From IMG/VR virus record IMGVR_UViG_2698536428_000011: a stretch of 2,349 bases of DNA, one strand, 5' to 3'. This DNA comes from a virus (taxonomy: Duplodnaviria; Heunggongvirae; Uroviricota; Caudoviricetes). The notes beneath the pieces were generated by a model. That model did no database searches, had not been told where the DNA came from, and saw only the letters and a program-made list of their open reading frames with translations. Positions 1 through 2,349 of this stretch are shown here, piece by piece (the first letter of the stretch is position 1; every line of letters begins with the position of its first letter). Position numbers and translations under genes: made by a program.

Positions 1-555
1 TCATTTATCTCCGACCGGAAACTTCTTATACAAAGTCGATACGCCAACATCATAAATGATCGCCACCTTCTGGCGAGGAACTCCTGATGCAATTAGTCGC
101 CCGGCCTGCGCCCATTGTTCTGGTGTAAGTTTGGGACGACGTCCACCAATTCGTCCCTGTGCGCGAGCAGCTTCCAGTCCAGCTTTTGTTCGTTCAACAA
201 TCAGTTCTCGTTCCATTTCAGCCAGGGCACCCATCACATGAAAGAAAAAGCGCCCCATTGGGGTACTAGTATCAATTGAATCCGTCAGACTACGAAAGTT
301 GATGCCTCGTTCGCGCAACTCCTCAACCAGAATGACCAGATGCCGCATACTACGCCCCAGCCGATCCAGCTTCCAGACAACCAGAGTGTCACCTGCCGAT
401 AATGTCCTGAGCAGTTTTTTCAGTCCAGGCCTTTCGGACTTTGTACCGCTTATCTTGTCTTCAAAAATCAGCTCGCATCCTGCACAGTTCAGCGCATTAC
501 GTTGTAGATCTGTGTTCTGGTCATTTGTTGACACACGTACATAGCCAATAAGCAT
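1..555 (-). CDS. pin: Serine DNA invertase, Pin/Gin/Cin/Hin family site-specific recombinase
   Basis: ORF track 1..591 minus. Translation has the serine-recombinase N-terminal catalytic motif GYVRVSTNDQ (Ser codon at 529..531) and a C-terminal helix-turn-helix-like region (GRRPKLTPEQWAQAGRLIASGVPRQKVAIIYDVGVSTLYKKF). Start placed at ATG 553..555 (MLIGYVRVS...), which has GGGAG 7 nt upstream, rather than the in-frame ATG at 589..591. Stop TGA at 3..1. Symbol given from recalled similarity to e14 Pin, not from a search. Confidence 0.9.
   Translation of the reverse strand: MLIGYVRVSTNDQNTDLQRNALNCAGCELIFEDKISGTKSERPGLKKLLRTLSAGDTLVVWKLDRLGRSMRHLVILVEELRERGINFRSLTDSIDTSTPMGRFFFHVMGALAEMERELIVERTKAGLEAARAQGRIGGRRPKLTPEQWAQAGRLIASGVPRQKVAIIYDVGVSTLYKKFPVGDK
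405..475. promoter_or_regulatory. Candidate Fis-dependent recombinational enhancer inside the invertase 5' coding region
   Basis: In Hin, Gin and Cin systems the enhancer lies within the 5' part of the invertase gene and has two Fis sites about 48 bp apart. Here GCAGTTTTTTCAGTC (411..425) fits the G-N13-C, AT-rich-centre Fis pattern, and a second A-tract element (457..472, GTCTTCAAAAATCAGC) sits about 47 bp away but matches only partly. Position and motifs are suggestive only. Confidence 0.3.
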
Positions 556-609
556 GGTAGATCTCCCTGACAAAAGCAGGAATGATGCCATTTGCTCGTT
601 ATTTCTGCA

Positions 610-635
610 TTTTCATAAACGTTGGTTTGGGAGAA
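610..635. repeat. Inversion crossover site, invertase-proximal (pix/gix/hix-like 26-bp site)
   Basis: Imperfect dyad TTTTCATAAACG-TT-GGTTTGGGAGAA. Its right half-site is the exact reverse complement of the left half-site of the site at 2326..2349. The 16-mer TTGGTTTGGGAGAAGC (622..637) recurs inverted at 2324..2339. AAAC/GGTTT arms around a 2-bp core are typical of Hin-family crossover sites. Confidence 0.75.
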
Positions 636-995
636 GCGGCAAAACGAAATGTGGGAACAGGGGAAAATCAGATACCGGACATGGCTTCATTTAGTGGGGT
701 GAGGGATTATTACGGAAAACAACTTTTGCCAGGAGGGTTGATACTTCAGTGGCTGACGATTCCATCAAGTGCAGCAGCCAAAGCTGTAACACTGAATAAT
801 GGTAATTATCAGCTGTCAGGCTATAAATGGCCCCAGTCATTTGGTGTCCTGTTTGCTGTGTTTGCTACAAAAGTTTCTGGCTCGACTAACGAAGCATATG
901 CAATCTCAGTTAATCGTCACTCTACCGATGTAATTGTCACCTGGAATGCCCGTAAGGCTGATGATGTCCACATTTTAGGAGTTGGGAAATTATGA
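610..995 (+). CDS. Tail-fibre C-terminal variable cassette, silent copy (Sv'-like); no independent start expected
   Basis: Plus-strand frame is open from the crossover site (ORF track starts at ATG 582 in the invertase leader) to TGA 993..995. The crossover site encodes the junction peptide NVGLGEA, matching LENLGLGEA on the other arm. Ends in an ATGA stop/start overlap with the downstream Tfa-like gene. By analogy with Mu S/S' and e14 it would be expressed only after inversion fuses it to the constant fibre N-terminus. Confidence 0.65.
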
Positions 996-1411
996 AAATG
1001 AAATGGTCCCCATCTGTTCAGGGATTTTTCTCTGAAAATAACAGCGATATTCCCGATGATGCTTTCGATATTGAAGATGCTCTTTATTATGAACTTATGA
1101 ATGGTCAGAGTACGGGGAAAATTATTATCAATAACCCGGATAACTACCCTGTACTTACTGAATATCCAGCGAAGACACAGGAACAGGAAATAGCTGAAGC
1201 GGAGGGAATGAAAAGTATACTTATTGAACAGGCCAACGAATACATGAACAGTAAGCAATGGCCTGGTAAAGCCGCTATTGGTCGTCTGAAAGGTGAGGAA
1301 CTGGCGCAATATAATTTGTGGCTGGATTACCTGGACGCACTGGAACTGGTCGATACTTCCGGTGCGCCAGATATTGAATGGCCTACGCCTCCGGCAGTTC
1401 AGGCCAGATGA
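992..1411 (+). CDS. Tail-fibre assembly protein (Tfa / gpU-like chaperone), silent-cassette copy
   Basis: ORF 992..1411, 139 aa. ATG overlaps the upstream stop (ATGA at 992..995), with AGGAG at 976..980. C-terminus ...[19 protein letters not shown] carries the conserved Tfa C-terminal motif (VDTS-APDIEWP). N-terminal region ([23 protein letters not shown]...[14 protein letters not shown]) resembles Tfa-type chaperones. Confidence 0.8.
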
Positions 1412-1646
1412 CGTCCGGCGCGGTGCTGGTATCTGATTCCATCACCGCGTCGATATTACCAACATCATATTCAGTCATTTCCGGTTCCGGTGGTGCTATA
1501 AACTCTCCGTCAGAATAGAACCAACCGACGCCTGCATCTATATCATCAATATTTATAATTTCGCAGTTAGAGAATAAATCACCCTCTCCATCCCAGATAA
1601 TAATATTTTTCACCACGCCATGTTCAATCAGAGCAAAATTACTCAT
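1383..1646 (-). CDS. Short Tfa-like tail-fibre assembly/chaperone protein, copy in the currently fused cassette
   Basis: ORF 1383..1646 minus, 87 aa. ATG overlaps the stop of the upstream fibre frame (TGATG), with GAGGAG 8 nt upstream. C-terminus ...[18 protein letters not shown] carries the Tfa C-terminal motif. Much shorter than typical Tfa proteins, so the functional call is tentative. Confidence 0.6.
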   Translation of the reverse strand: MSNFALIEHGVVKNIIIWDGEGDLFSNCEIINIDDIDAGVGWFYSDGEFIAPPEPEMTEYDVGNIDAVMESDTSTAPDVIWPELPEA

Positions 1647-2349
1647 CAGGCATACTCCTCAACAATAACTATTCCCGGGGCACCGTCACCTCCCGATTGA
1701 GCCTCACTTCCGGCAGGTGCGCAGGCTCCGCCTCCGCCAGCACCAAAGCCCTCAGCTTTACCACCACCACGTCCGCTGAATGATGAAGAACTTGCACCAC
1801 CTATACCGCCTGAACCTAGTGGTGTATCCCCCCCGGTACCACCTGCAACAGCTTTAACAGAGATAACCATTGCTCCTGGTGTTTTTGCACTACAGCGAAA
1901 TGCTCTTAGTACAGTACCGGACGATGTCGGACTGGCACCCCATGAAATACCCTGAATATATGATGTGTTTGCAGATGCTCCCCCCGCGCCACCGCCTGTA
2001 CCACCCGGTGCAGTTATCAGGGAACCGAAATAAGTTGTGCCACCTTCACTACCTGAATTTCTTCCGGCTCCCCCCCTTTACCTGCAGCACCGATAATAAC
2101 GTTGACTTCGAAATCATTATCAACCTCGAAAAATGCTTCAATAAATGCACCGCTCAATCCAGCTCCGGCTGTTGCCTGCTGATTTGCTGTTGTTTCAGGA
2201 ACCCCACCGCCGCCGCCACCGCCACCAGAGGCAATGACCCTTATCTTTTTTGTCCCTGGTGTTGGGATATATTTTCCAGAGCTTTTAAAAATATTCGTGT
2301 TTAACAAACGACCAGAGAATCTGGCTTCTCCCAAACCAAGGTTTTCGAG
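1646..2349 (-). pseudogene. Tail-fibre C-terminal variable cassette (Sv-like), partial at window edge, reading frame broken at a G7 tract
   Basis: One minus-strand frame is open from the window edge through the crossover site ([21 protein letters not shown]...SGGGGGGGGV...GAAGKGGEPEE...) to TGA at 2019..2017. A second frame is open from 2077 to TGA at 1648..1646 and encodes Gly-rich fibre-like sequence (...TAPGGTGGGAGGASANTSYIQGISWGASPTSSGT...GGTGGDTPLGSGGIGG...EEYA) coupled to the Tfa-like gene. The frames meet at G7 on the minus strand (C7 at 2070..2076); one extra G would give a continuous cassette of about 234 codons. Could be a true frameshift, programmed or slippage-based decoding, or a homopolymer sequencing error. 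Confidence 0.55.
2326..2349. repeat. Inversion crossover site, invertase-distal, truncated by window end
   Basis: TTCTCCCAAACC-AA-GGTTTTCGAG (last 2 bp of the 26-bp site would lie beyond 2349). Its left half-site is the exact reverse complement of GGTTTGGGAGAA at 624..635, placing it in inverted orientation to the 610..635 site. The minus-strand fibre frame reads through it in frame. Confidence 0.75.

Follow-up and report, generated by a model that had tools for sequence, protein, structure and literature searches.

A probable two-state tail-fibre switch of the Gin/Cin/Pin/Hin type at the end of an Escherichia coli contractile-tail prophage

The question raised by this locus is whether a single stretch of viral DNA of 2,349 nucleotides (nt) (IMG/VR record IMGVR_UViG_2698536428_000011; Caudoviricetes), which we call the window and analyzed over its whole length, carries a tail-fibre switch driven by a DNA invertase, and whether the fibres offered by such a switch could be made from the sequence as deposited. 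A first-pass annotation, made from the letters alone, had proposed a serine invertase, two inverted crossover sites and two convergent cassettes of fibre tip and chaperone, and we found all of these elements where it had placed them. The window is very probably a two-state host-range switch for tail fibres, of the Gin/Cin/Pin/Hin type, located at the end of a contractile-tail prophage of E. coli. Switches of this kind are already known, and the mechanism is not new; the novelty is limited to the combination of cargo genes carried on the scaffold formed by the invertase (Pin) and its crossover sites (pix).

Invertase, crossover sites and inversion

The gene pin (1..555, minus strand) encodes a serine DNA invertase of 184 amino acids (aa) that belongs to the Pin/Gin/Cin/Hin subclass. 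Two Pfam domains were detected in the product, Resolvase (residues 3-135, 1.1e-51) and HTH_7 (residues 138-180, 3.4e-14), and the protein matched PHROG 125, "DNA invertase" (1.5e-97), as well as the sequence of the Gin crystal structure 3uj3 (E=3.7e-94), with Ser9, found in MLIGYVRVSTNDQ, aligned with the catalytic position of Gin. The similarity to serine invertases predicted by the first-pass annotation turned out to be close, with 96.7% identity to PinE of the K-12 element e14 (178/184 residues, the six differences being all conservative) and 79.4% to Gin of phage Mu, and RefSeq names the gene pinE in the source genome. An in-frame ATG at 591 would add 12 codons and give a Pin of 196 aa; a start at 555 agrees better with the alignment to Gin and PinE. 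We infer that the Pin encoded at this locus is active.

The segment is delimited by two crossover sites of 26 bp. The invertase-proximal pix site is located at 610..635 (reverse complement TTCTCCCAAACCAACGTTTATGAAAA) and is the inverted partner of the fibre-proximal site at 2326..2351 (TTCTCCCAAACCAAGGTTTTCGAGAG). Of the latter, 24 of the 26 bp fall inside the window (2326..2349, TTCTCCCAAACCAAGGTTTTCGAG), and the last two (AG) were completed from the source genome (locus L001, see below). These two sites are identical to the pinE-proximal and the stfP-side sites of K-12 e14, respectively. The arms of the inverted repeat (617-637 and 2324-2344) are 21 nt long and 95% complementary, and a core of 19 nt, TTCTCCCAAACCAASGTTT, occurs exactly twice and in opposite orientation, with 0.00 occurrences expected by chance (200 shuffles). 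Read in the same sense, the central dinucleotide is AA in both sites. Only two pix-like sites were found in the window, even when two mismatches were allowed in the core, indicating a two-site, two-state element. A multi-site shufflon, as in Min of p15B or Rci of R64, was ruled out on this count.

The 5' end of pin contains a candidate Fis-dependent recombinational enhancer (471..534), recognized by its position and by conserved 15-mers. Two 15-mers with G...C ends, at 534-520 and 485-471, together span 64 bp; from the middle of the left crossover site to that of the nearer 15-mer the distance is 95.5 bp, and the pair is conserved in K-12 pinE as well as in Mu gin. The Hin enhancer has been described as 65 bp long, with a Fis site at each end and at ca. 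100 bp from hix (PMC3798978). Since size and spacing fit this published description, 471-534 is plausible as the Fis enhancer of the switch, and a dependence on Fis and on this enhancer would be expected by analogy.

The window was 100% identical to positions 1379230-1381578 of the chromosome of E. coli JNEC-KY208 (NZ_AP045181.1; locus L001), in which the constant part of the fibre gene lies directly to the right of position 2349 (L001 14326-14676, minus strand; 351 nt, 117 aa). The first-pass annotation had placed such a part there, reading leftward into the segment, and its frame does continue uninterrupted across the right crossover site, read as LENLGLGEA, into the window. RefSeq labels these 351 nt as a partial hypothetical protein, "missing C-terminus". 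Beyond the constant part are found the baseplate wedge, baseplate J, sheath initiator, spike, tape-measure-region and tail genes, and the neighbouring tail and baseplate genes are intact in the source prophage. On the left, a single hypothetical gene separates pin from the host gene yfhH. Because the tail and baseplate genes are on the right and the host yfhH is beyond pin on the left, the switch can be placed at the end of a contractile-tail prophage. The claim that it is complete in one window goes slightly too far, as the right site is short by 2 bp and both the constant part and the fibre promoter are outside.

By analogy with Hin and Gin, dimers of Pin would bind the two inverted 26-bp pix sites, synapsis with the Fis-bound enhancer in the 5' end of pin would follow, and the DNA would be cut at the central AA/TT and rotated, the outcome being an inversion of the 1,716 bp that separate the site centres. 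The fibre gene would begin outside the window, to the right, with the end of its 117-aa constant part encoded across the crossover site. In the present orientation the constant part would be followed by a glycine-rich tip (from 2325 down to 1646) and a short Tfa of 87 aa, and in the flipped orientation by a gp53-like tip (636-995) and a Tfa of 139 aa. Translational coupling between each chaperone and its tip is probable, since the start of the former overlaps the stop of the latter. The two tips would be expected to have different receptor specificities.

Comparison of database sequences showed in-frame fusion in both orientations. Besides the frame that crosses the right site in the window, the predicted flipped junction of tip 1 (the gp53-like one) with the constant part is in frame, and strain A16, which carries a prophage of the same type, contains the flipped fusion (98% identity) as a fibre of 236 aa followed by tfa1, the gene of the 139-aa Tfa. 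Both fusion proteins are thus present in databases, as the 236-aa fibre of A16 and as protein P0007, which carries the glycine-rich tip. In G1/2, G8, G6/7, Ec1117, 20Y000092 and PCP06235, only 617/622-2344 of the window is matched, with 97-99.5% identity. In the annotated loci of G1/2, 20Y000092 and PCP06235, the gp53-like tip is the one that faces the constant part and the glycine-rich tip the one that faces the invertase, which corresponds to the opposite orientation. Both orientations of the segment therefore occur naturally, as shown across these other genomes. UC4315 and UC4316 (L009/L010; NZ_CM168048.1, NZ_CM168047.1), which are laboratory mutants of UC4224, have flanks that are 100% identical and a 1.46-kb segment inverted between them. 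This segment, part of a P2-like prophage, contains the same glycine-rich tip and an open reading frame (ORF) of 88 aa; in one strain the tip forms a separate ORF of 244 aa beside the invertase, whereas the other strain has it within a fibre of 580 aa. Their comparison indicates that the inversion state can differ between sister isolates and that it changes the protein annotation (a 244-aa versus a 580-aa product). Inversion of the e14 P segment is known to occur in K-12 cultures (PMC4272514).

A closely related P segment also offers the precedent for a different use of such a module, as the e14 protein StfE2 is reported to block receptors of other phages after an inversion mediated by PinQ (PMC12529663). 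Here too the host could have co-opted the module, with inversion yielding a tip protein that blocks the receptors of other phages, and the pix sites are identical to those of e14, so that they could also be used by Pin paralogues present in that cell. However, the prophage has a full and intact set of tail and baseplate genes, unlike the defective e14, an ordinary role in host range is sufficient, and these tips come with no evidence of defence. We consider co-option extremely unlikely and keep the reading of the window as a host-range switch.

The two cassettes of fibre tip and chaperone

The variable tip 1 (636..995, plus strand), silent in the present orientation, is a C-terminal domain of 120 aa. 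It matched PHROG 2557 (2.4e-33) at the C-terminal end of this 534-position profile and, weakly, Pfam Gp53-like_C (18.3 bits, under the cut-off). The frame is open upstream across the crossover site to ATGs at 582 and 585, and RefSeq calls a 136-aa "hypothetical protein" from this extended frame. The ATG at 582 is probably not a true start of tip 1. The stop of tip 1 overlaps the start of tfa1 (ATGA), which encodes a tail fibre assembly chaperone of 139 aa (992..1411, plus strand). Its product is a member of the Pfam family Caudo_TAP (PF02413; 2.6e-23, 83.1 bits with a cut-off of 22.1), matched PHROG 188 (2.3e-51), has 49% identity to K-12 TfaP and is the same protein as WP_000782981.1, annotated in five related loci. 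In a DNA search against 50,697 phage records, tip 1 and tfa1 together were 96% identical to part of Escherichia phage Cartapus, and pin and cassette 1 appeared in P2-like phages as well. The glycine-rich cassette had no DNA-level match among the same records. Sequence searches against PDB gave nothing significant for the tips or tfa1, and in NCBIfam no family was above its cut-off for any of the window proteins.

Tip 2 (1646..2325, minus strand) is a glycine-rich domain that is joined in frame to the constant part and frameshifted farther along. Once repaired, it matched Pfam Gly_rich_2 above the threshold (9.1e-08, 32.8 bits) and PHROG 6202, "tail fiber protein" (3.7e-54). An AlphaFold model obtained from 39 homologues had a mean predicted local distance difference test (pLDDT) value of 87.9. 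When this model was compared to PDB with Foldseek, the matches included the tail tip of mycobacteriophage Bxb1 (E=3.7e-8) and the fibre of cyanophage Pam3 (E=3e-7), and weaker ones corresponded to the glycine-rich domains of ALK and LTK. The modelled structure supports tip 2 as a putative distal fibre or receptor-binding module. Early in the glycine-rich domain, eight glycine codons follow one another (2207-2230, minus strand; GGGGGGGG in the protein), a run that adjoins the most conserved glycine positions in the alignment of the 39 homologues.

The ORF that follows tip 2, the ATG of which overlaps the tip stop by one base, is short and Tfa-like (1383..1646, minus strand; 87 aa) and is presumed to encode the chaperone of this tip. 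Over its first 56 aa it matches PHROG 14370, to which no function is assigned, while the last 22 aa match the tail-assembly-chaperone family PHROG 3792 and contain the conserved Tfa C-terminal motif. K-12 TfaE ends in a stretch that has 87% identity to the last 23 aa of the ORF. Against Caudo_TAP the ORF scored 17.3 bits, below the cut-off, with the match located in the last 19 residues only. A homologue search returned six clusters. An 88-aa form is kept beside the same glycine-rich tip in other prophages, and for this reason we regard the ORF, judging by sequence, as a conserved short derivative of Tfa and not as random debris, with chaperone as its putative role. RefSeq calls it a "hypothetical protein" in some genomes; in JNEC-KY208 the annotation is limited to the last 72 nt of the ORF, given as a partial "phage tail protein".

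The first-pass annotation had counted two tip cassettes and two chaperones. Both tips are indeed present, but the right-hand one is not an intact ORF, as the frame changes at 2070-2076. Both chaperones are present as well, although the second has only 87 aa and resembles Caudo_TAP just in its last ~20 residues.

The frameshift in the glycine-rich tip

Several observations weigh against a fully working two-state switch. A single assembly of the locus was seen, in a single orientation. A promoter scan found no sigma-70-like promoter for pin in 556-640, and the counts of promoters and terminators were near chance level. A generic scan of pin for Fis motifs gave many weak matches and did not discriminate, so the enhancer stays a candidate. 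The 87-aa ORF aligns end to end with a Tfa of 132 aa (P0006) minus ~45 central residues, and its RefSeq annotation is inconsistent across genomes. Lastly, the tip that is joined to the constant part changes frame at 2070-2076, both in the window and in L001, and the switch may be partly defunct.

The frame changes at a homopolymer of seven Gs on the coding strand (C7 as written; 2070..2076, minus strand) that has eight in intact alleles. Loci L002, L003 and L004 contain one more G (G8) and an uninterrupted tip of ~230 aa. Tip 2 was present in 35 of 5,426 complete E. coli genomes; the exact G8 form was found in 23 of these 35 and the exact G7 form in three (JNEC-KY208, 89-3156 and C21). The intact fibre, P0007 (343 aa), was found on 67 contigs; it shares the 117-aa constant part, and its tip shows 100% identity. 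As written, the present orientation would produce a fibre ending early, at ~207 aa, until the segment flips. Programmed frameshifting at the G run was discarded, as the run lacks the form of a canonical slippery heptamer and most alleles stay in frame without it.

Between a real slip and an error of assembly in the homopolymer the balance is roughly even. If G7 is an assembly error, which we hold to be an even chance, the switch would be intact and the prophage would make the full 343-aa glycine-rich fibre in this orientation. The other two G7 genomes, 89-3156 and C21 (L005, L011), have 3-4 further single-base homopolymer deletions each within the same 950 nt, the other G runs of the tip gene being affected too, and, because several such deletions are the typical pattern of long-read error, their G7 alleles point to errors of assembly. 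The window has a single deletion, and this sole defect sits in the longest homopolymer of the tip gene, which also argues for an error, as do the 67 contigs with the exact intact protein and the 23 of 35 genomes that match the G8 form exactly. However, no other frameshifted gene was found in the surrounding 26 kb of the source assembly, which is therefore not generally error-ridden. A real frameshift would mean that the fibre module is decaying; Pin might still flip the segment, with only the gp53-like orientation giving a full-length fibre. We see this as a distinct possibility, if short of an even chance. The frameshift is present in the deposited sequence, G or C runs of eight are prone to slippage, and tail-fibre genes of prophages are commonly pseudogenized, K-12 e14 stfE being itself annotated as a pseudogene. 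On the other hand, pin, tip 1, tfa1, the short Tfa and both sites are intact and near widely shared alleles, the neighbouring tail genes are intact, and the homopolymer error pattern of the other G7 genomes applies here too.

The G8 run might also act as an on/off layer of slippage superimposed on inversion, with three states (tip 1, tip 2 on and tip 2 off). In favour of such a layer, the three genomes with G7 carry it in prophages of different backgrounds, always with tip 2 in the expressed orientation, and the coding strand of tip 2 has three G runs of 6 to 8 bases (2070-2076, 1828-1834 and 1980-1985). Nevertheless, two of the three G7 cases look like assembly errors, G8 is dominant, no G9 form was seen (G9 was not looked for), and G runs follow simply from glycine codons. 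The expressed orientation is in any case common among genomes with tip 2, so that three out of three is uninformative, and with n=3 we rejected the orientation bias of the G7 alleles as meaningful. We regard this slippage layer as most improbable. The combined proposal of a three-state module that works through G8 slippage and has the 87-aa Tfa as a dedicated minimal chaperone for glycine-rich tips is, in our view, highly unlikely. Where a fibre gene has many glycine codons it contains long G runs, which are hotspots for assembly error or slippage. Because these runs are prone to both, apparent pseudogenes in such genes need confirmation at the level of reads.

Related systems and exchange of half-cassettes

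The first-pass annotation had recognized the classic Mu G / P1 C / e14 P architecture; this is borne out, but the cargo genes differ from those of the e14 P segment. Apart from the nearly identical invertase (96.7%) and the two identical 26-bp pix sites, both have the same layout (constant part, site, tip and Tfa, convergent Tfa and tip, site, invertase) and the last 27 aa of the constant part in common, whereas the first 90 aa of this part are unrelated. DNA similarity to e14 is confined to 3-636 (pin and the left site, 93.5%), 1256-1454 (85%) and 2325-2349 (the right site). Here the gp53-like tip 1 is found instead of StfP and the glycine-rich tip 2 instead of StfE, the tips being unrelated, and the second chaperone has 87 aa compared to the 200 aa of TfaE. 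The prophage, with its full complement of tail genes, is located beside yfhH, while e14 is defective and located at icd. With cargo genes that are not those of K-12, the window was not considered to be the e14 P segment proper (stfP/tfaP/tfaE/stfE).

The architecture is also that of the Mu G segment, with the invertase on the same side (Gin, 79.4% identical), and the Mu gix site aligns with pix (TTCCTGTAAACCGAGGTTTTGGATAA in Mu and TTCTCCCAAACCAAGGTTTTCGAGAG here). The Mu segment is larger (~3 kb), as its variable parts (S, S') far exceed those of the window in length, and its U/U' chaperones have ~175 aa. The central dinucleotide is GA in Mu versus AA here, and the tips have no sequence similarity. 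Segments in P2-like prophages of E. coli (UC4224, 20Y000092, C21) contain the glycine-rich tip and the 87/88-aa ORF, with 97-99% DNA identity, together with the same crossover core, and some of them have the same tip 1 and tfa1 as well. Their invertase, however, has 188 aa and is only 86.7% identical, it sits between the fibre module and the sheath gene, and the constant part is a P2 H-type fibre of ~350 aa. Hin/hix of Salmonella has an invertase of the same subclass and sites of 26 bp (PMC3798978), and the Hin enhancer, of ~65 bp, is in the 5' end of the invertase gene, the same place as the candidate here. Nonetheless, Hin flips a promoter and its gene is inside the segment, whereas in the window a coding region is exchanged and the invertase is outside the segment.

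The convergent tfa genes meet at a conserved junction (1256..1454), the only stretch inside the segment with similarity to K-12 e14, where their 3' ends overlap by 29 nt (1383-1411) exactly as in e14. Related loci share with the window either 1-1407/1454 or ~1402-2344, not both, and in strain A16 cassette 1 is combined with a K-12-like tfaE/stfE cassette. The same cassettes were found in three backbones, namely, the JNEC-KY208/A16 type, Mu/e14-like prophages (L002, L003) and P2-like prophages (L004-L006, L009-L011). Because related loci break at these points and the cassettes recur across backbones, the pix sites and the tfa overlap behave, as judged from these comparisons, as boundaries for the exchange of half-cassettes. 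The mosaicism of fibre genes has long been known, and half-cassette exchange is no new principle. One Pin/pix scaffold carries interchangeable half-cassettes in at least three backbones of contractile-tail prophages, and a region that RefSeq splits into fragments and "hypothetical proteins" can now be read correctly. The genome with locus L002 (NZ_LR882050.1) carries the glycine-rich tip region twice, at ~1.44 Mb and ~2.03 Mb. Its e14-like copy has an intact tip (G8) that is unannotated in RefSeq, which calls only a partial stfP there.

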